64,000 nt of DNA from Alphaproteobacteria bacterium (GTDB taxonomy: Bacteria > Pseudomonadota > Alphaproteobacteria > GCA-2731375), in the NCBI GenBank assembly GCA_965232515.1, contig CBDDPY010000002.1:5280001-5344000 (forward strand). The letters are read 5' to 3'. How positions within the stretch are numbered: the first letter of the stretch is position 1; every line of letters begins with the position of its first letter. The notes under the pieces were generated by a model that was given only the letters and a program-made list of their open reading frames with translations, did not search any database and had not been told where the DNA came from. Below, one piece after another: positions 25,874-52,708 of this stretch. The position numbers and the translations under genes are program-made.

Positions 25874-27700
25874 TTACTGCGCCATTGACAGATATTCGGA
25901 ACACAGATTTTCAATTATCCAGGTTCGCTGGTTTCCCCATTCCTTTGCAGCAATTCTCCTGTCTAAATGCGCATTCCTGTTTGTCGGCTCTTCGGCCCAA
26001 TAGGCGTAATCCAGCCAGCGAGACACTCGATAAGTTACATCTGGTCGAAAGTCCTCCCATTCTGCCACTTTTTTGGCAACCTCCGGCCGGATTACATATG
26101 AATCTTTGCGATAGTGTTTGAGAAATTCAGCTACCTTCAGGGCTGTTTGTCCTCCCATTGCAAAAACCAAATCGTGACCCCATTTTTCAAACAGGAGTTT
26201 CTTAAACTCATTGTCAAGATTATCTTGATCCAGATCTCTATAGATGAGGCCCTCATCAGCTGGATCTATGATAGGACCAGTCATGTGATTTGCTTCTCGT
26301 TGAGAGTCGTACCTTGTCTTTTGTTGGTCGCCTACACTCTCTAAAGCAAACCTTTCAACAAACGCAGATCTAAACTCCTTACACATTTTTGCCAGTACCG
26401 CCTTCGATGCGGCATTAATATTGTTTGCTTTAGTCCAATCTATGGGTTCGACGCTCCAAAGCCGAAGTTTCATGCATTCATCGATTAAATTTCCGTCTTT
26501 GTCTAAGGGCTGAGTTGACTGGTAGCACTTTGCGCCAAAGCCCTCCAGTTTTAGAAGCATTTCTTTAAGTTCATCCCGCTTGGCTTTAATTTCTTGCCTG
26601 AATTCGACAATATCTGTGTTAGAGATCGAAACTGTCGCGTTGAAGATTGAACTCAGCCTTTCGACCTGATTGTTAAGCCGCCTATGCGCCTTCAAGCCAG
26701 CCTTGACCGCCTCGTCCTGGAGGCTGGATCGAGAAAACTTCGCAGCGCCAGCCAATTGGACTTCAGTTGGCCAAACCTTCTTCTCTTTGTCGAATATCGT
26801 GTCGACTATCGTCAGTTGATGGTTCCTTGCTGCAGACGTGTAAATATTCAATTCTTTGATATGATTTGACAAGGCGTTTCTCACCGCACCAAAATCTTCA
26901 TAGTCATTGGAAATTCCCGAAACAACATCTATGCTATTCGCACCTATGAAGTACCCATAAGCTGATACAGACGCGATCTTTGATAGTTTATTAAGAAAGC
27001 TTGAAAAGTCACGTCTTACCTTTCCACTGAAACTTGCGCCCTTTGCGTGGGCAGACATGCTTTCCTCAACTTCACTTATGATTTGATTAGAGATGTTTCT
27101 TGCCGAATAAACTGCGACGACAAGCGCAAACCGGTTTTGACTCGAGACAAAATGTGTACCGCATTTACTGTAAAATTCGTCCGGGCTTTCTGAATTTTTG
27201 AGTGCGGCCTTTCCTAATTCCGTAAGCTCTATCTCCGAGGCAATAACGTCCCCAAAATCAATGTCTGCAAAGAGCATCCAGTGGAGGGAGTCGGAATGAA
27301 AATCTAAATGATCAAATGTTGATTGAGAATAATTAAAGCCTCCCGAGACCGCACCAAATTTAGCATTGGCCTTTGCGGAAATACTTTCTGATACTGTGGA
27401 TATCAAATCTTGTTCGCTGGATATTTTTTTCAATCTAAACAGAGCGCTCTCAATCGGGTTCTTTAAAAGCGACTTATCAATTTTTTCCCCATTTATCTTT
27501 ATTGTTTGAATTTTGTCAGCTAAAGCTGGGATATGACTGAAGCAAAGCGTCGGATTTATTGAGATATTCCGATAATCAACACCTTGACCAAGATATACTT
27601 TTTTTGTCGGCATATATCCATCAATGCTATCAGCATATGCGGAACAACTTGCCAAGATAGACAAATAAACTAATTGGCGGAGTTTGGACTTTTTCAACAT
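25874..27700 (-). CDS. Secreted low-GC protein, possibly MACPF-like
   Basis: Signal peptide MLKKSKLRQLVYLSILASCSAYA, LGQGVD, Ser/Ala/Gly-rich strand region and FYSKCGTHFVSS; strongly AT-rich. Confidence 0.55.
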   Translation of the reverse strand: MLKKSKLRQLVYLSILASCSAYADSIDGYMPTKKVYLGQGVDYRNISINPTLCFSHIPALADKIQTIKINGEKIDKSLLKNPIESALFRLKKISSEQDLISTVSESISAKANAKFGAVSGGFNYSQSTFDHLDFHSDSLHWMLFADIDFGDVIASEIELTELGKAALKNSESPDEFYSKCGTHFVSSQNRFALVVAVYSARNISNQIISEVEESMSAHAKGASFSGKVRRDFSSFLNKLSKIASVSAYGYFIGANSIDVVSGISNDYEDFGAVRNALSNHIKELNIYTSAARNHQLTIVDTIFDKEKKVWPTEVQLAGAAKFSRSSLQDEAVKAGLKAHRRLNNQVERLSSIFNATVSISNTDIVEFRQEIKAKRDELKEMLLKLEGFGAKCYQSTQPLDKDGNLIDECMKLRLWSVEPIDWTKANNINAASKAVLAKMCKEFRSAFVERFALESVGDQQKTRYDSQREANHMTGPIIDPADEGLIYRDLDQDNLDNEFKKLLFEKWGHDLVFAMGGQTALKVAEFLKHYRKDSYVIRPEVAKKVAEWEDFRPDVTYRVSRWLDYAYWAEEPTNRNAHLDRRIAAKEWGNQRTWIIENLCSEYLSMAQ

Positions 27701-28001
27701 CGAACTACCCTCCAAGTCTGTGCGATTCTAATGTAGATACGCACGTTGCTGATGAAATTTGAGGCGCAGTACGAGGTGCTGGAGGCGTTGGTCACCAAGT
27801 TGAATGAAACCACCACGCTGGTGGAAAACATGGAGATCTGTATGGACGCATCGCAGCATTACGACCGTAAAGAAAACCGACTTGTATTTCAATAAAAAGA
27901 AGGCGCTCCCCATGTTTGGCTCCCCTTGCCATCTGTTCGTCTTATGGGGCGTATACAAACTGCTGACTGACGTTTCTTGACACATGCTGGAAGCGCACCA
28001 G

Positions 28002-46352: not shown

Positions 46353-47945
46353 CTAGCCGCGTCGCGCTTCCAGCGGCGCGCGGGCGCCGCCGACCTGGGT
46401 CAGGGCGTAGCTGGGATCGTCGACCGTCGACAGGTCCACGACGCCGGATTCCTCGATGCCGAATTCGTTGCGCACCCGGTGCGCCGGCAGCACGACGGTC
46501 ACCGACGTGCCGTGACCGTACTCGCTGTCGACGCTGATCGTGCCGTCGTGGCGCTCGACGAAGTTCCGGCACAGGGCCAGCCCGAGCCCGGTGCCCTGCT
46601 GGTCCTTCCGCGTATCCGACGGGCCGGCCTGGACATAAGCGACGAAGATGCGCGACAGGTCCTCGCGTTTGATCCCGATGCCGGTGTCGCTGACGCGCAG
46701 CGCGAAATCACCCTCGTCGGTCAGTCCGCACTCGACCCGGACTTCGCCCTGGGCCGGGGTGAACTTGATGGCGTTCGAAATCAGGTTCAGCGCGATCTGC
46801 GAGATCATTCGGTCATCGGCATAGAGCAGCGTGCCGCGCGGCATCATGTCGTCGAGCTGCAGCCGGACATTGCCATGCTCGGCCTGGGCCTGCATCGAGC
46901 CGACCGCGTTCTCGATGGTCTCGGAGACATCGAATGTGGCTTCGTACAGCTCCAGACGGCCGGCCTCGGCCTTCGACAGGTCCAGCAGTTCGTTGATCAG
47001 GTTCAGCAGGTGCGCACCCGATCGGTGAATGAAGTCGACATACTCCACATACTTCAAATTGCCGACGGGCCCCAATGCCTCGGTCTGCATCATTTCCGCG
47101 AAACCCAGGATCGAGTTCAGCGGCGTGCGCAGTTCGTGGCTCATGTTGGCCAGGAACTGCGACTTCATCTCGTTCGCCTGCTCGGCTTGCTGCTTGGCCA
47201 GTTGCAATGCCTGCTCGGCTTCCTTGCGGGCGCTGATATCGCGCAGGGTCGCGAGATAGGCCGGCGCGTCTTCCCAGACGGTCCGCATGACCCGCATTTC
47301 GGCCGTCGTGCGCTGGCCGTCGTTCCGCATCAGGTTGATCTCGGTATTGTCGCCGCCTTCCAGGGGAATACCGAACCGGCTGCCGATCAGATGCACGATC
47401 GGCCGCTGCATCAGTTGTCCGGCGACATCGTTCGCGAAGCGGATGACCCCGTCTTCGTCGATCACCAGCATGGCGTCGGAGTTGCTGGCGATCAGGCTCT
47501 GGAACTGCTCCTTGACCGCCACGGCGTTGCGGCGCTCCCGGATCAGCTGGGTCGCCATGCCGTGACGCTCGACCGCCTGACGCAGGGTCCGCATCAGCGC
47601 CCGGCCGTCCAGCGTGCCCTTGACGACATATTCGACCGCGCCGGCGCGGATTGCCGCTTCGGCCGTCTCGGCGTCCTCGACGTCGGTCAGCACGATCAGC
47701 GGCGCGTCGGCGCTGCCGTGCAGCGCGGCGATGTCGCTGGCCAGGTCGGTCGCGTCGGCGATGAAGGGGTCGAGCAGAACGATGTCGACCTGATAGCGGG
47801 ACAGTATATCCACGGCCGACGAAATAGACACGACATGGAACAGCTCGTACGAACAGGGCCCGAACCTTGAAAAGCTGTTCCGGATCGTCTGCGCCGAATC
47901 CCGATTGGGATCGATCAGCAGAACGGTCAACGCAACGCGATGCAT
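46353..47945 (-). CDS. Hybrid sensor histidine kinase (REC-PAS-HisKA-HATPase)
   Basis: SHELRTPL, NLISNAIKF, DTGIG and GTGLGL; the N-terminal REC has an atypical acidic pocket. Confidence 0.9.
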   Translation of the reverse strand: MHRVALTVLLIDPNRDSAQTIRNSFSRFGPCSYELFHVVSISSAVDILSRYQVDIVLLDPFIADATDLASDIAALHGSADAPLIVLTDVEDAETAEAAIRAGAVEYVVKGTLDGRALMRTLRQAVERHGMATQLIRERRNAVAVKEQFQSLIASNSDAMLVIDEDGVIRFANDVAGQLMQRPIVHLIGSRFGIPLEGGDNTEINLMRNDGQRTTAEMRVMRTVWEDAPAYLATLRDISARKEAEQALQLAKQQAEQANEMKSQFLANMSHELRTPLNSILGFAEMMQTEALGPVGNLKYVEYVDFIHRSGAHLLNLINELLDLSKAEAGRLELYEATFDVSETIENAVGSMQAQAEHGNVRLQLDDMMPRGTLLYADDRMISQIALNLISNAIKFTPAQGEVRVECGLTDEGDFALRVSDTGIGIKREDLSRIFVAYVQAGPSDTRKDQQGTGLGLALCRNFVERHDGTISVDSEYGHGTSVTVVLPAHRVRNEFGIEESGVVDLSTVDDPSYALTQVGGARAPLEARRG

Positions 47946-48105: not shown

Positions 48106-49620
48106 TTACTCTTCGAACAGCTTCGCCAGGCGTTCCGCCTCGTCGGGCGCGACGTTGTGGGGATTGCCCGACAGGATGCCGACGACGTTTCGGAACTGGG
48201 CGCCGAGCGTCATGCCGGTCTTGTCGATCCGATACTCGCGGATGCTCTTTTCGTGCACCGAACCGCGCATCTTCAGAACGGTCAGGCCGCGCCGCATCTC
48301 GCCGAACATCTCGACGTAACGCAACAGCACGATGGAGTCCGTGATGGTCGAGATATGAGCCTCCGTCACCGACGTGCCGCCCAGCAACGTCGGTGTGGTC
48401 GACGTGACCATCGTGGCGATTTCCTTCTGCTTCACGAACGACGTCAAGCCGATGCAGAACTCGCGGAAACCTTTCTCGCTGGAGATCCGTTCCAACGCCG
48501 ACAGGCTGTCGACGGCGACGCGGTCCGGCCGGAACTCGTCGATCTGATCGCGGATGCTGATCAGATGGTCTTCCAGGCTCTGCATCTCGGGATAGACGCA
48601 GGACACACGCAGTGTGCCGTTCGCCTCCAGCGAGCCGAAGTCGTAACCCCAGCTCGCGGCATTGCGGGACAACTGGTCGTGGCTTTCTTCGAAGGCCAGG
48701 AACAGACATTTGTCGCCGGCCTGCGCGCCGGCGCCGATGAACTGCGTCGCCGACAGCGTCTTGCCGGTGCCCGTCGCGCCCGACACCAGGATCACCGAAT
48801 CCCGGAAGAAGCCGCCACCGCACATCTCGTCCAGCTTGTCGTTGCCCGACGTGACACGAATATTGGTCGAGCCCTGGGTCAGGCCGATGGCGGCCAACGG
48901 AATGACCTCGACGCCCTTATGCGGCACGACCGAGAACGGATACTCGCCCTTCGCATGCGTGGTGCCGCGGAACTTCAGGACTTCCAGCGTCCGGCGGCGC
49001 TTTTCGGCGTCCAGTGCATTGCGCAGGATGATGACGTTGTCGGCGACGAACTCCTCGACGCCGAAGCGGGCGATCTCGCCGTATTCGTCGGTGCGCTCGA
49101 CGGTCAGGACCGAGGTCACGCCCAGCTCGCGCAGCGAGGCGGTGATGCGCAACAGCTCGCGCCGGACCGTGGCCGCGTCACTGAATTCGGCGAACACCGC
49201 GCCCAATGAATCCAGCGTCACCCGCTTGGCGTTGGTCCGGCTGATCGCCGCTTCGACCCGGACCAGCAGACCGCCGAAATCGAAATCGCCGGTCAGGATC
49301 GGCTCGGCGCCGGGCGTGGGCGACGCGTCGATGAACGTCCACTTGCCTTCCTCTTCCCAGGTGGCGACGTCCCAGCCGAAGCCGCGCATGTTGCGGCGGA
49401 TTTCGGCAGCCGGTTCCTCGAAGGTGATGAACACGCCGGCTTCGTCGAACTGCTGGATCCCGGCCGCCAGAAAATGCGAGGCGAACACGGTCTTCGCGCT
49501 GCCCGAGGTACCGGCGACCAGGGTCGTCCGGGCCTCCGGCAGACCACCGAACGAAATATGGTCGAAGCCGGAAACGCCGGTATTGATCTTTGGAATCGAC
49601 TGATCGGCCTGGGTCATCAT
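48106..49620 (-). CDS. kaiC: Circadian clock ATPase KaiC
   Basis: Two RecA-like domains (GTSGSAKT, GATGTGKT), FEE motifs, phosphosite region HISTITD and KMRGS.H. Confidence 0.95.
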   Translation of the reverse strand: MMTQADQSIPKINTGVSGFDHISFGGLPEARTTLVAGTSGSAKTVFASHFLAAGIQQFDEAGVFITFEEPAAEIRRNMRGFGWDVATWEEEGKWTFIDASPTPGAEPILTGDFDFGGLLVRVEAAISRTNAKRVTLDSLGAVFAEFSDAATVRRELLRITASLRELGVTSVLTVERTDEYGEIARFGVEEFVADNVIILRNALDAEKRRRTLEVLKFRGTTHAKGEYPFSVVPHKGVEVIPLAAIGLTQGSTNIRVTSGNDKLDEMCGGGFFRDSVILVSGATGTGKTLSATQFIGAGAQAGDKCLFLAFEESHDQLSRNAASWGYDFGSLEANGTLRVSCVYPEMQSLEDHLISIRDQIDEFRPDRVAVDSLSALERISSEKGFREFCIGLTSFVKQKEIATMVTSTTPTLLGGTSVTEAHISTITDSIVLLRYVEMFGEMRRGLTVLKMRGSVHEKSIREYRIDKTGMTLGAQFRNVVGILSGNPHNVAPDEAERLAKLFEE

Positions 49621-49929
49621 TTACGCGGTATCTCCGTTACTGCCATCCGGATTCAGATTCAGGCCGACCAGCACACGTTCCTTTTCCGTCAGGTCGCCGA
49701 TTATGGTGCGCATGGGCGGCGGCAATTCCTTGATCACCGTCGGCGTCGCCAGGATCCGGTCCTCCTCGGCCAGGTTCGGGTGCTCCAGCACGTCGATGAT
49801 CAACAGTTCGTATCGGTTATCCAGGGTGTCGCGGCAGATCTGCCGCAGTGTCGTGATCGCGTTCTCCGAGCGCTCGGTGCGTCCGGTAATGAACAGCTTC
49901 AAGACATACCGTTCCGTGTCGCTATTCAT
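49621..49929 (-). CDS. kaiB: Circadian clock protein KaiB
   Basis: YVLKLFITG, IIDV..HP.LAEEDRILATPT.IK.LPPP.R.IIGDL; abuts kaiC. Confidence 0.95.
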   Translation of the reverse strand: MNSDTERYVLKLFITGRTERSENAITTLRQICRDTLDNRYELLIIDVLEHPNLAEEDRILATPTVIKELPPPMRTIIGDLTEKERVLVGLNLNPDGSNGDTA

Positions 49930-50806
49930 GGCCGGACCCCCTTTCAACTGGATCTGCTGTGGGACCATGGCCGCGTCCCAGGGCGAAGACGCGATACTCG
50001 CCGGCGAGATATCCCATCATTTCGAGCAGGACAATCCGGCCCTCTGTCGACATCGCTTTGGCTTTGCGGCCGGTCATGTTTGCTGTCCGTGCCTTCATTG
50101 CAGACAAATGAATTTCGATGACGTCGCGGGGCGCGACCTTCAGGCGTCCCAGTCGCACGGCCAGCTGCTTCAAACGCGGCGGCACGTTCAGATCGGCCTG
50201 GGTGACGGTCTGGTTGACCGCGGCTTCCATCAGCTCGCCATACTCGTTGACAATGTCCGAAAACTGCAGCGGCGCCCCGTCCTGAAGCCGGGTGACCTGG
50301 AATGCCCGCGCCGACGTGCTGGCCAGCGGCGGCGCTGCCAGGCGCTCCAGCGATCCGCGTTCTCGGGCCTGCTGCGCTTCGTATTCCGCCGCTTCCAAAC
50401 GCATCAATATCTTGTGACGCTCCAACGCGTAGCGTACCGAGCGGCGTACCAGTTCCGGATTGAGATCGCCCTTGACCAGAAAGTCCTGCGCACCGACCTG
50501 GATCGCCTTCAGGCCAAGGTCGGCGTCATCGAGTCCCGTCAGCACGATGATCGGCACCGAAGGCGCCGCCGCGTACAGAGATTCCAATGTCGCCAGGCCT
50601 TCGGTATCGGGCAGGTTCAGATCGAGAATCGCCAGATCGACAGGCTCATTCTGGATCAGGCCGAGGCTGTCGCTCAGCGTCTCGGCCTCGCGAAAATCGA
50701 AACTGTCGCTCTCGACGTCTTTGAGCCGCTGGCGAAACAATGCACGCTCGGCGGCGTCGTCGTCGATCAGGAGGACGCTCTTCGGTTGCCGATGTGCAAG
50801 CTGCAC
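49922..50806 (-). CDS. Response regulator receiver fused to a KaiA-C-terminal-like domain (KaiA3-like)
   Basis: Canonical REC (IDDD, ILDL, LTG, LVKG); C-terminus DVIEIH...R.VLLEMMGYLAGEYR; overlaps the kaiB start. Confidence 0.75.
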   Translation of the reverse strand: MQLAHRQPKSVLLIDDDAAERALFRQRLKDVESDSFDFREAETLSDSLGLIQNEPVDLAILDLNLPDTEGLATLESLYAAAPSVPIIVLTGLDDADLGLKAIQVGAQDFLVKGDLNPELVRRSVRYALERHKILMRLEAAEYEAQQARERGSLERLAAPPLASTSARAFQVTRLQDGAPLQFSDIVNEYGELMEAAVNQTVTQADLNVPPRLKQLAVRLGRLKVAPRDVIEIHLSAMKARTANMTGRKAKAMSTEGRIVLLEMMGYLAGEYRVFALGRGHGPTADPVERGSGHE

Positions 50807-50977
50807 GGATTGACCTCGAAACCGCCCGCGCGACCCCCTCGGACGGATAATGCCTCAATATTCCACTTAGTCGAGGAAAATCCTGAAATAATTCGGTAAT
50901 TTAGAACCTTCTTATACTATTCGCTTGGCGTCGGTTTGCAGACAAGCCGAGTAAAAGCGCGCGAGTTATTCACGCTA

Positions 50978-52054
50978 TTAGTCGGCGCGACGGCGCAACG
51001 TAAAGAAGAACGTGCTGCCGCCAAGCTCGTTCGCCGCCACCCAGATCGTGCCGCCATGTTCGTTAACGATTTTCTTGCAAAGCGCGAGGCCGATGCCCGT
51101 GCCCTCGCCTTCGCCACGCGGCCGCGTGCGCTGAAACATGCGGAAAATCCGCTCTCTATGCCGTTCCTCGACGCCAATGCCGTTGTCCGCGACCGAGAAC
51201 AGCCAGTCGTCGTCCTTGGTCTCGGCGGCGACATGAATGCGGGGCGTTTCCGCGCCGCGATAGGCGATCGCATTGCCGATCAGATTCTGAAACACCCGCA
51301 TGATCTGCGGTCCACTGCAGGTGATTTCCGGCAGTGGGTCCTGGCTGATGGCGGCCCCGCTTTCGTTGATTGCGGCGTTGAGATTTTCCAGCGCCGTCGC
51401 CAGCAAATTGTCGGCCTGGAACGTCTCGAACGGCTCGGGCCGCGCACCGATTCGCGCATACGACAGCAGATCGTCCATCAGATTCGCCATCCGGTCCGCC
51501 GTCGTGTCGACATGCTCGAGCAGTTCGCCGGCGTCGGCGTCGCCGGATTTGTCGTTGCGAAGGCGCAGCAGATCGATGAAGGCCTTGATGTTCTTCAGCG
51601 GCGCCTTCAAGTCGTGCGAGGCGACATAAGCGAACTGTTCGAGTTCGCGGTTCGAATGTTCCAGCGATTTGCGCTGCGTGATGTCGTTTTGAATGCCGAC
51701 GAAGGCCGTCAATTCGCCGCCGGCATCGAACACCGGCGTGATCACCACATCGTTCCAGAACGGCCGGCCGTCCTTGCGATAGTTCAGAATCTCGGCGCGC
51801 ACGCTTTCTTGCGCAGCGATCGCGTCGCGGATGCGGGTAACCGTCGCCGGATCCGTGTCCGGGCCCTGCAGGAACCGGCAGTTCGCACCCAGACAATCGT
51901 CGGCGCCGTAGCCCGTCAGGCTGGTGAAGGCGGGATTGACGAAAACGAGCGGATTGTCGGGCAGCGACGGATCGCTGATCGAAACGCCCGACAGCGTGGC
52001 TTCGACCGCCGCCTCGAAGCTGAGGCGGAGTTCCGGTCGTGCGCGATTAGGCAT
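50978..52054 (-). CDS. LOV-domain (blue-light) sensor histidine kinase
   Basis: DNPLVFVN, GANCRFLQG, NYRKDGRPFWN and FVGIQ; SHDLKAPL, NLIGNAI, DNGIG and GTGIGL. Confidence 0.92.
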   Translation of the reverse strand: MPNRARPELRLSFEAAVEATLSGVSISDPSLPDNPLVFVNPAFTSLTGYGADDCLGANCRFLQGPDTDPATVTRIRDAIAAQESVRAEILNYRKDGRPFWNDVVITPVFDAGGELTAFVGIQNDITQRKSLEHSNRELEQFAYVASHDLKAPLKNIKAFIDLLRLRNDKSGDADAGELLEHVDTTADRMANLMDDLLSYARIGARPEPFETFQADNLLATALENLNAAINESGAAISQDPLPEITCSGPQIMRVFQNLIGNAIAYRGAETPRIHVAAETKDDDWLFSVADNGIGVEERHRERIFRMFQRTRPRGEGEGTGIGLALCKKIVNEHGGTIWVAANELGGSTFFFTLRRRAD

Positions 52055-52080: not shown

Positions 52081-52566
52081 CTAGATCAGTTGAAACTGTC
52101 CGGTCGCCTTGAAACGCAGATAGGCCTCGATGCTGCGGACCATGTTCGGCAACGTCTCGGGCAACGCGGTCGGCGCGAACCAATCGAGCGCCAGGGTTTC
52201 GTCATCGCCGCTGAGTTCGCCGGAAAATGCGGTCGCGTAGAACATCAGGACATGGGCGTGCAGCCGGTGGCCGTTCGGATAGGTGAAACGTTCGAATTGC
52301 GGTTCGCTGCCATGGCCGAACGGCCGCGGCGCGACGACGTCCAGGCCGGTTTCCTCGCGGGTTTCCCGCACGATGGTCTGCAGCACGGAATCGCCGTCTT
52401 CGGCATTGCCGCCAGGCAGTCCCCAAACGCCGAAATCTGCCCGCTTCTGCAACAGGATTCGGCCGTCATCACGCTCAATGACAATACGGGCGCCAGGCAC
52501 CAGCAGCAGCCGATTGCCGACAACATCGCGTAATCGTCCGAGATAGCTCTCCGCGAATCCAGTCAT
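52081..52566 (-). CDS. NUDIX hydrolase
   Basis: PGG...RETREETG Nudix box. Confidence 0.9.
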   Translation of the reverse strand: MTGFAESYLGRLRDVVGNRLLLVPGARIVIERDDGRILLQKRADFGVWGLPGGNAEDGDSVLQTIVRETREETGLDVVAPRPFGHGSEPQFERFTYPNGHRLHAHVLMFYATAFSGELSGDDETLALDWFAPTALPETLPNMVRSIEAYLRFKATGQFQLI

Positions 52567-52708
52567 GCCACCGTCCAGGCGATTTCGCCGGCCGTACTGC
52601 CTTTGTTGATGCCGATCAACGCGCGATTCGGGGGTGAAGTTAGCCTGCCAAGCGCCGACGGCCAACGGTTCCGTTGGTCAGAACGTGTGGCAAAGCGGAG
52701 GGCCCGAG

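Follow-up and report, generated by a model that had tools for sequence, protein, structure and literature searches.

We describe a 64,000-nucleotide stretch of DNA from an Alphaproteobacteria bacterium (assembly GCA_965232515.1, contig CBDDPY010000002.1, positions 5,280,001 to 5,344,000)—hereafter the window, in which positions are counted from the first letter—that carries on its minus strand a five-gene Kai module, made up of a LOV-domain histidine kinase, a receiver joined to a KaiA3-like domain, KaiB, KaiC and a REC-PAS kinase. The placement of a LOV kinase beside a KaiA3BC set suggests that light may be fed straight into a clock-like system. Our preferred reading, to which we assign a probability of roughly 0.5, is that light enters the Kai module through the LOV kinase, most likely at Asp62 of the KaiA3-like receiver. 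Asp62 is favoured because this receiver is encoded by the immediate neighbour of the kinase gene, because paralogs of the kinase and of the receiver are paired elsewhere in the same genome and because fusion proteins tie LOV domains to the KaiA-like domain. LOV kinases and KaiA3B3C3 systems are each known already; what is new here is their joining as a LOV two-component input.

According to the available text of Koebler et al. (2024; PMC11372060), KaiA3 consists of a receiver with a phospho-acceptor aspartate and a KaiA-like C-terminal domain, is encoded before kaiB and has orthologs outside the cyanobacteria in five genera. The accessible parts of that paper and of a July 2026 review (PMC13421787) call the cognate kinase and signal of KaiA3 unidentified. 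In a literature search whose scope excluded supplements (for example, Data S1 of Koebler et al., 2024), we met no account of a LOV kinase beside kaiA3, or of a conserved kinase of any other sort there, nor of any known LOV histidine kinase beside kai genes.

An intact LOV domain on a complete histidine kinase

Listing and translation of open reading frames (ORFs) divided positions 49922-52054 (minus strand) into two ORFs in the same frame, rather than one. A single fused gene across this range was ruled out, because several stops (residues 358 to about 418 of the 711-codon read-through) separate the two frames. The first ORF (50978-52054, minus strand) opens with ATG and encodes a LOV-HisKA-HATPase sensor histidine kinase of 358 amino acids, recognised from the reading frame, Pfam, NCBIfam and a match to the solved structure 4gcz. 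A spacer of 171 nucleotides (50807-50977), with a terminator-like hairpin at 50959-50975 after the kinase stop codon, separates it from the second ORF (49922-50806, minus strand), which opens with GTG and encodes the receiver and KaiA3-like domain in 294 amino acids.

The LOV domain (about residues 15-127; 51674-52012, minus strand) reads DCLGANCRFLQGPDTD and contains Cys59 (codon 51878-51880), Arg60 and Gln63 within GANCRFLQ, which starts at 51889. Arg76, Asn91, Asn101 and Gln122—the last inside FVGIQND—are also present, and six of these residues (Arg60, Gln63, Arg76, Asn91, Asn101 and Gln122), which we take to be LOV flavin-contact positions, align with identical residues of the YtvA LOV domain in 4gcz. 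The domain was also located by a motif scan of the whole 7.39-megabase (Mb) genome, in which the exact pattern G.NC[RK]F[LM]Q occurs once, in the LOV kinase.

Pfam recognised PAS_9 at residues 32-127 (E 3.3e-22), HisKA at 138-204 (E 1.6e-11) and HATPase_c at 250-355 (E 1e-25). The HisKA/DHp domain (51443-51643, minus strand) carries the H-box FAYVASHDLKAPL with His147 (codon 51614-51616) as the predicted phospho-accepting residue, and the HATPase_c catalytic domain (50990-51307, minus strand), which could be aligned to the kinase 8f71, contains NLIGNA, DNGIG and GTGIGL stretches. The NCBIfam YtvA-family LOV model matched residues 14-140 (E 1e-44); the NCBIfam model for ‘blue-light-activated histidine kinase’ (NF052306) reached 136.1 bits against a cut-off of 450 and matched only residues 15-138, the LOV part. 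Among solved structures the top match was the YtvA-LOV/FixL chimera 4gcz (E 3.6e-46, residues 15-354), in which NCRFLQG, NY.KDG, FWN and FVGIQNDIT are identical and the LOV portion aligns with YtvA LOV without gaps; more than 50 solved LOV domains matched at E < 1e-29. Because these motif, model and structure matches lie far beyond chance, the assignment of an intact canonical LOV domain joined to a complete HisKA kinase is confirmed at the level of primary structure.

In its layout the protein resembles the bacterial LOV histidine kinases of known structure (3t50, 6ph2-4), with a single N-terminal LOV domain bearing GXNCRFLQ, a short helical linker and a kinase core; Brucella LOV-HK, Caulobacter LovK and Erythrobacter EL346/EL368 are, we assume, members of this group. 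It is nearly the same size as the engineered 4gcz and shares its layout. It differs from the NCBIfam BluLightHisKinLov type in that its kinase core is HisKA with the H-box FAYVASHDL.

Two other proteins of the window’s genome have LOV or LOV-like sequences. A LOV-GGDEF protein on the main contig (C2 about 1019098-1020201, minus strand; L224:2098-3201) reads GRSCRLLQGPDTD, keeps the cysteine and has a LOV domain 49% identical to that of the window, while in a CHASE5-PAS-PAS hybrid kinase (C2 about 3609110-3611722; L225:2110-4722) the LOV-like GHNPRILQG has proline in place of cysteine.

A KaiA3-family protein ahead of kaiB and kaiC

The receiver domain (residues 11-113; 50468-50776, minus strand) matched Response_reg at E 1.1e-20, with Asp62 (codon 50621-50623) as predicted phospho-acceptor; Asp15/16, Asp62, Thr90 and Lys112 are all present and are nearly invariant among 35 aligned relatives. 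A database search returned about 35 full-length relatives that share the motifs PRDVIxIH and EGRxxLLELMGxLxxYR, represented in the window by PRDVIEIH and EGRIVLLEMMG...YR within the helical C-terminal domain (about residues 179-275; 49982-50272, minus strand).

A profile built from the C-terminal domain alone (profile A3, 17 rows) was run against all solved-structure sequences, where the KaiA C-domains 1q6a and 1v2z led at E 2.4e-4. Comparison by hhalign with four canonical KaiA C-domains from cyanobacterial genomes gave a probability of 76% and E 2.3e-5 over 90 columns, pairing IEIH with VEIH and EYR with MYR; His233 and Tyr271-Arg272 of the window protein fall opposite residues invariant in all four KaiA rows.

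Profile A3 was also applied to 301 genomes sampled from the phylum to which a cyanobacterial locus belongs, and it matched in 22. Twenty of these matches were strong (E 1e-41 to 1e-46, against 9e-43 for the window’s own protein), with open frames of about 290-330 amino acids; these twenty loci were fetched and the two weak matches were left out. All twenty cyanobacterial genes lie directly before kaiB, with kaiC next in 5/20; kaiB likewise follows the KaiA3-like gene in 23/25 genome loci and 74/78 metagenome loci. Because the profile finds cyanobacterial pre-kaiB proteins that fit the published KaiA3, we file the 294-residue protein as a member of the KaiA3 family, with length and context pointing to identity between the cyanobacterial matches and Sll0485. 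The family itself is large, with 1896 clusters (at 50% identity) at E up to 0.001 and 425 at E up to 1e-30. A tblastn search of plasmids with the KaiA3-like protein returned 26 records, all receiver-only and none covering 80% of the query.

The gene for KaiB (49621-49968, minus strand) has a listed ATG giving 115 residues and an alternative internal start at Met14 (49929); with either start it overlaps the 3′ end of the KaiA3-like gene. KaiB scored 89.5 bits against Pfam KaiB (cut-off 27) and fell below the cut-offs of the NCBIfam equivalogs (102.4 against 110 and 99 against 145.3). The double-domain KaiC (504 amino acids; 48106-49620, minus strand), which starts at the base after the kaiB stop, passed two NCBIfam equivalogs (NF006799, 694 bits, cut-off 408; TIGR02655, 618.8 bits, cut-off 546.25) and aligned end to end with the solved KaiC 8zn5 (E 1.4e-201). 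It has two RecA-like domains and the stretch HISTITD, which holds Ser424/Thr425; its C-terminal tail is short and can be aligned with that of solved KaiC. The protein scored 674 bits against cyanobacterial KaiC and 305 bits against the 568-residue type (8dba, 8fwi). A REC-PAS-HisKA-HATPase hybrid kinase of 530 amino acids (46353-47945, minus strand) follows; it holds the second receiver of the cluster, with Asp59, and is a candidate output kinase. Kinases of the REC-PAS type follow kaiC in most related loci, and the window’s genome has a single copy each of kaiB, kaiC and the KaiA3 domain.

These results bear out two identifications made in the preliminary description of this DNA, which was drawn from its letters and ORFs: an intact LOV domain (with the cysteine of GANCRFLQ and the glutamine of FVGIQ) on a complete kinase, upheld by Pfam, NCBIfam and the 4gcz alignment, and a receiver plus KaiA-like protein, upheld by a complete Response_reg and by the profile-based relationship of the C-terminal domain to KaiA. 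That description gave the pair as one range, which is in fact two genes; its 171-nucleotide spacing and its co-orientation of kinase and KaiA-like gene were exact.

Several variations on the Kai genes were seen along the way. The first Walker A of the window’s KaiC (about residues 35-43) reads GSAKT, with alanine in place of the usual glycine before lysine, and 50 pattern-picked KaiC frames from related loci have AKT in 39, SKT in 6 and GKT in 5; the AKT form may be a signature of KaiA3-linked KaiC. Two KaiA3-like/kaiB/kaiC sets stand side by side in L123 (G537), L138 (G579), L154 and L204, the second set of L123 running kaiB, KaiA3-like gene, kaiC on the opposite strand. In many clusters from the phylum sample kaiC is followed by another, divergent kaiB-like gene, whose product, where scored, is 25-43% identical to the window’s KaiB.

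A conserved kinase upstream of KaiA3-like genes

KaiA3-like genes were collected from 4 of 41 relatives by single-protein search, and from 4 of 401 class genomes and 25 of 401 phylum genomes with the C-terminal profile. One named locus, L005, was added; it was the sole family member among 80 loci returned by a scan of genome contigs with a receiver pattern, the other 79 being unrelated receivers. We counted a locus as positive if a co-oriented ORF ended no more than 1.5 kb upstream of the KaiA3-like gene, scored at least 100 bits against the window kinase through its C-terminal end and matched that kinase better than the downstream REC-PAS kinase.

The genome loci comprised 26 KaiA3-like genes, two of which had too little upstream sequence to be evaluated; a kinase of the same subfamily lies upstream in 18 of the remaining 24, across nine coded families. 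Among the metagenome loci (82 KaiA3-like genes, 35 evaluable), an upstream family kinase was found in ten. These tallies are counts, not statistics, because related genomes are not independent. In all five other genomes searched whole, the top match to the window kinase core was the kinase beside the KaiA3-like gene; in the two of the same class the best match led the next widely, by 181 to 84 bits and by 179 to 90 bits.

The Kai-adjacent kinases have the H-box FAYVASHDLQEPL in common, and in the tree they group as a clade (support 100/99) separate from the downstream kinase type. Their sensors vary: ten that were examined carried one to three PAS domains, a GAF domain or a 4HB_MCP four-helix bundle. 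In the one other genome found to have a LOV kinase at this place—G001, of the window’s genus—the kinase is 88% identical to that of the window, keeps the LOV motif and lies 170 nucleotides from the KaiA3-like gene. Compared with 22 Kai-adjacent cores from other genomes, the window’s LOV kinase was the second-best match within its genome for 20. Its H-box region is changed (SHDLKAPLKNIKAF against SHDLQEPLRxVxG), and the first helix of the KaiA3-like receiver is changed too (DDDAAE against EDNPGD); joint changes of this kind would fit the co-divergence of a pair, and are only suggestive. We regard the LOV kinase, as far as alignment and tree can place it, as a diverged family member at a conserved position, and propose that proteobacterial-type KaiA3BC clusters combine a conserved input kinase with an exchangeable sensor, a LOV domain having been fitted in the window’s lineage.

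Paralogous pairs and fusion proteins

Searching the window’s own genome with the kinase core returned three leading paralogs: one at 4.64 Mb with 49% identity and 223 bits, one at 3.51 Mb with 171 bits and one at 1.84 Mb with 152 bits. The same search with the KaiA3-like receiver gave, among the 25 matches listed, a top paralog at 4.6407 Mb (44% identity, 105 bits), within a REC-kinase encoded two genes beyond the kinase at 4.64 Mb; a second at 3.513 Mb (64 bits), a short way downstream of the kinase at 3.51 Mb; a third in the cluster’s own REC-PAS kinase (63 bits, 31% identity); and a fourth at 1.8426 Mb (59 bits), next to the kinase at 1.84 Mb. Of the four receivers closest to the KaiA3-like receiver, three thus adjoin the three kinases closest to the LOV kinase. 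Because paralogs of both proteins pair up in this way, the kinase and receiver families appear to travel together, which is the pattern that duplication of cognate pairs would produce.

The paralogous cluster at 4.64 Mb (G000 C2:4637284-4641882; L223:5285-9883) encodes a 977-residue multi-PAS HisKA kinase, a single-domain receiver and a 391-residue REC-HisKA kinase. A second kai cluster near it was ruled out, because kaiB, kaiC and the KaiA3 domain are each single in the genome.

A scan of 146 representative family members found one with a LOV motif, the 407-residue P0190, and a search with P0190 added one further full-length relative, P0277 (43% identity). P0190 begins with a degenerate receiver that lacks the acidic pair and the lysine; its LOV domain is canonical (GRNCRFLQ, NY.KEG, FWNE, GIQRD) and 47% identical to that of the window, and its KaiA3-like domain is 38% identical to the window’s (E 2e-26). 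P0277 is more diverged, with GHNCRFLH and leucine in place of the terminal glutamine. Both are metagenomic proteins in which a LOV-type domain that bears the cysteine is fused straight onto a KaiA3-like domain. Other long forms (P0137, P0143, P0163, P0192, P0216, P0221 and L199:203-1426) were found, and 45 of the 146 representatives exceed 340 amino acids; the N-terminal partners of the KaiA3-like domain include a receiver with one to three PAS domains, five PAS domains without a receiver, and PAS with GAF. These fusions are independent cases of a sensor wired to a KaiA3-like domain, two of them with a Cys-bearing LOV-type sensor.

Proposed mechanism

In our proposal, the LOV domain would bind flavin, and blue light would form an adduct at Cys59 that alters autophosphorylation at His147. 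The phosphoryl group would then pass to Asp62 of the KaiA3-like receiver, a step for which gene order, the paired paralogs and the fusions argue. Phosphorylation of Asp62 may in turn alter the action of the KaiA-like domain on the C-terminal tail of KaiC, and hence the state of Ser424/Thr425, with KaiB as antagonist; the part played by the KaiA-like domain and KaiC is modelled on the published Synechocystis KaiA3B3C3 system. The REC-PAS kinase encoded after kaiC would read out the state of the timer. The module could be a free-running oscillator, an hourglass timer or a stress switch.

Weighing light input at Asp62 against the alternatives

A number of observations weigh against light input at Asp62, and are set out here with the alternatives to which they lend support. 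First, Asp62 is not the sole candidate in the cluster: the LOV kinase might target Asp59 of the REC-PAS kinase (46353-47945), or both receivers, in which case light would gate an output or feedback branch. When distance matrices were correlated across 15 loci, all cluster components co-varied (r about 0.92-0.93); partial correlations with the upstream kinase were 0.55 for the KaiA3-like receiver and 0.66 for the downstream receiver, values that 15 loci do not separate and by which the downstream receiver tracks the kinase at least as well. We take this to mean that the cluster evolves as a unit, and nothing further. In several of the related clusters it is the downstream kinase that bears the EDNPxD receiver motif, the more canonical form, which accompanies kinases with the FAYVASHDLQEPL H-box, as in the 4.64 Mb pair; and in the 4.64 Mb paralogous cluster the receiver closest to the KaiA3-like one is itself fused to a kinase. 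By contrast, the downstream receiver of the window is only 31% identical to the KaiA3-like receiver, ranking third among its paralogs and fourth in the list of 25 matches; 3 kb and three genes separate it from the LOV kinase, whereas the KaiA3-like gene is the immediate neighbour; and the fusions tie LOV to the KaiA-like domain rather than to the output kinase. We therefore consider a downstream target less likely, while allowing it a substantial share of the probability, and retain Asp62 as the favoured entry point for light.

A second set of difficulties concerns the adjacency itself. The LOV sensor is rare at this position: within upstream kinases, NC[RK]F[LM] was found in the window and in its congener G001 only, and a scan of every ORF at the remaining loci (25 from genomes, 80 from metagenomes and 20 from cyanobacteria) did not turn it up, while an order-level search of 33 genomes found the LOV kinase only in the window’s genome (G000) and in G001. 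A LOV-type motif is absent from the remaining kinases that matched over their full length, of which two are in genus g6 (37% identity) and three at further loci. The family kinase itself was not found at the upstream position in 6/24 genome loci (L005, L090, L093, L125, L131 and L139) and in 25/35 evaluable metagenome loci, and an adjacent kinase is present in 0/20 cyanobacterial loci. Of the 22 Kai-adjacent cores from other genomes, 21 match the 4.64 Mb paralog best, and the tree puts both LOV kinases on a long branch, without resolving its position inside the clade; strict orthology of the LOV kinase is not shown, because the paralog is closer and the LOV branch is long.

Transcription may also be separate. 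The hairpin after the kinase stop (50959-50975) is weak, has a T-run and is not conserved in G001, whereas about 80 nucleotides before the KaiA3-like start (about 50807-50888) are nearly identical in G000 and G001 and the remaining spacer has diverged; on this pattern the kai genes may have their own promoter, and the conserved block, which contains the short inverted repeat CCTCGA...TGAGG, could be a promoter or operator. A promoter scan found 0 sites, and the RNA fold of the 171-nucleotide spacer is unremarkable (z -0.59). Three RNA libraries (X4, X6, X7), labelled with a different organism, contain contigs that match parts of each of the five genes at 90-99%, although, with low depth and possible DNA carry-over, these contigs indicate presence in the libraries, not transcription. 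None of them bridges the 171-nucleotide gap, which, together with the hairpin and the conserved block, is compatible with separate transcription. One contig of 1423 nucleotides joins the LOV kinase to the adjoining NUDIX gene, so these two may be co-transcribed.

Taken to its limit, this evidence would make the adjacency meaningless: the LOV kinase would be transcribed apart from the kai genes and have its partner elsewhere, and the KaiA3-like receiver would be served by another kinase, for example the 4.64 Mb paralog. We find this quite improbable, given the conservation of a same-subfamily kinase at the same position in 18/24 evaluable genome loci, the recovery of the Kai-adjacent kinase as best genome-wide match to the window kinase core in 5/5 genomes and the pairing of kinase and receiver paralogs in the window’s genome. 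Moreover, the cluster’s own two receivers are the only ones near the kinase, the next match to the receiver query being about 15 kb off. The count of terminator-like sites in the region does not exceed that in shuffled sequences.

A third alternative accepts the kinase as an input and questions the signal: the LOV-type domain might respond by way of its flavin to redox state or to oxygen, or lack photochemistry altogether, with metabolic input to the Kai proteins as in Synechococcus. Flavin-binding PAS domains can serve as redox sensors, and other upstream kinases carry ordinary PAS or GAF sensors. A related upstream kinase in G133 (same class, other coded family) has a PAS domain 41% identical to the window LOV that retains LQGPNTDPAT and has lost the Cys-Arg pair and the final Gln; it keeps its place after losing the cysteine and other flavin-contact residues, and is compatible with an older LOV ancestry followed by loss, or with convergence. 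In the window, all residues that define a photoactive LOV domain are present in a gap-free alignment to YtvA LOV, and the congener retains the motif at 88% overall identity. We consider a sensor of something other than light very improbable here.

Finally, the relationship to KaiA is distant. Pfam KaiA (PF07688) gave no match to the C-terminal 153 residues even at E up to 10, while the same model detected KaiA in 5/5 cyanobacterial genomes used as a control. The only Pfam match of this domain was RsbU_N (E 0.048), a single-sequence search against solved structures gave a chance-level match only, and apolipoprotein A-I came close behind KaiA in the profile A3 search (E 3.9e-4). Homology of the C-terminal domain to KaiA itself is, on the profile comparisons, supported but remote.

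Together these results give partial support to the route set out in the preliminary description, which is somewhat strengthened and still an inference from sequence, and in which blue light acts through the LOV kinase on the KaiA-like aspartate and then on KaiC. The conserved kinase, the paralogs and the fusions speak for that route, and the restriction of the LOV sensor to one genus speaks against it. The synteny survey proposed there divides in the same way, with the same-subfamily kinase conserved in 18/24 loci and the LOV sensor confined to the window and its congener. Its caution that the link rested on adjacency only has been superseded by the conserved kinase (18/24), the paralog pairing and the LOV-KaiA3-like fusions.

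Comparison with known systems

The closest known counterpart is KaiA3-KaiB3-KaiC3 of Synechocystis sp. PCC 6803, with which the window shares a receiver plus KaiA-like domain encoded directly before kaiB. Compared with the cyanobacterial KaiA3 loci, the window adds an adjoining LOV kinase (0/20 there) and an adjacent kaiC (5/20 there). With canonical KaiA (PF07688; 1q6a, 1v2z, 1r8j), the window protein shares about 90 aligned columns, the IEIH and YR motifs and the A-B-C gene order; it differs in escaping the Pfam model and in having a genuine receiver at its N-terminus, where canonical KaiA, according to the accessible text of the review (PMC13421787), has a quinone-binding pseudo-receiver.

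The KaiBC timers of purple bacteria (8dba, 8fwi) are similar in having a non-cyanobacterial kaiB-kaiC pair with an adjoining PAS kinase; the two KaiC structures are, we assume, from Rhodobacter, and the purple-bacteria timer shows hourglass behaviour. Unlike these, the window cluster includes a KaiA-like protein, and its KaiC is closer to the cyanobacterial type, without the long C-terminal extension (504 against 568 amino acids).

ATP/ADP is one route by which the Synechococcus clock is entrained. The same clock is also entrained indirectly, by quinone sensing through KaiA and CikA, in the account given in the available text of the review (PMC13421787). Both there and in the window, input would act on or through a KaiA-type component; the window differs in that a dedicated photoreceptor kinase, which would work through phosphotransfer, is the candidate input, and its genome yielded no reaction-centre gene. 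Searches for reaction-centre (PF00124) and phytochrome PHY (PF00360) domains gave no match in this 96%-complete genome, and control genomes responded.

Other features of the window and genome

Upstream of the LOV kinase lies a NUDIX hydrolase gene (52081-52665, minus strand), which ends 26 nucleotides before the kinase start. Elsewhere in the window, positions 26001-28000 have a G+C content of 0.433, against 0.53-0.70 in the rest, and may be foreign DNA. Two further contigs of the assembly, C3 (5516 nucleotides) and C4 (10862 nucleotides), have G+C contents of 0.458 and 0.423, against 0.655 in the main contig, and could be small replicons or contaminants.

Locus L090 (G005, from the window’s family; genome 78% complete) has a REC-PAS kinase directly after its KaiA3-like gene, a family-type kinase upstream on the opposite strand, and no kaiB or kaiC in the 17 kb fetched.

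Implications

What this locus and its relatives single out is a particular kinase subfamily beside kaiA3 outside the cyanobacteria and, within the window’s genus, blue light. More broadly, and more tentatively, with the odds in our judgement somewhat against it, KaiA3 timers outside the cyanobacteria may be sensor-programmable through a dedicated kinase, with blue light as the signal here and LOV-KaiA3-like fusions having arisen independently elsewhere; were that so, a kinase family and one natural signal would have been named for KaiA3.

Blue light is an easily controlled signal, and the question could be tested with four soluble proteins and a lamp. The fusions suggest more than one origin for light input to KaiA3-type domains. 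If our reading is correct, the module would provide a direct blue-light cue for a KaiABC-type timer in a bacterium whose genome gave no match to the photosynthetic reaction-centre family or to phytochrome PHY, and the finding bears on whether non-photosynthetic bacteria track the day with Kai proteins.

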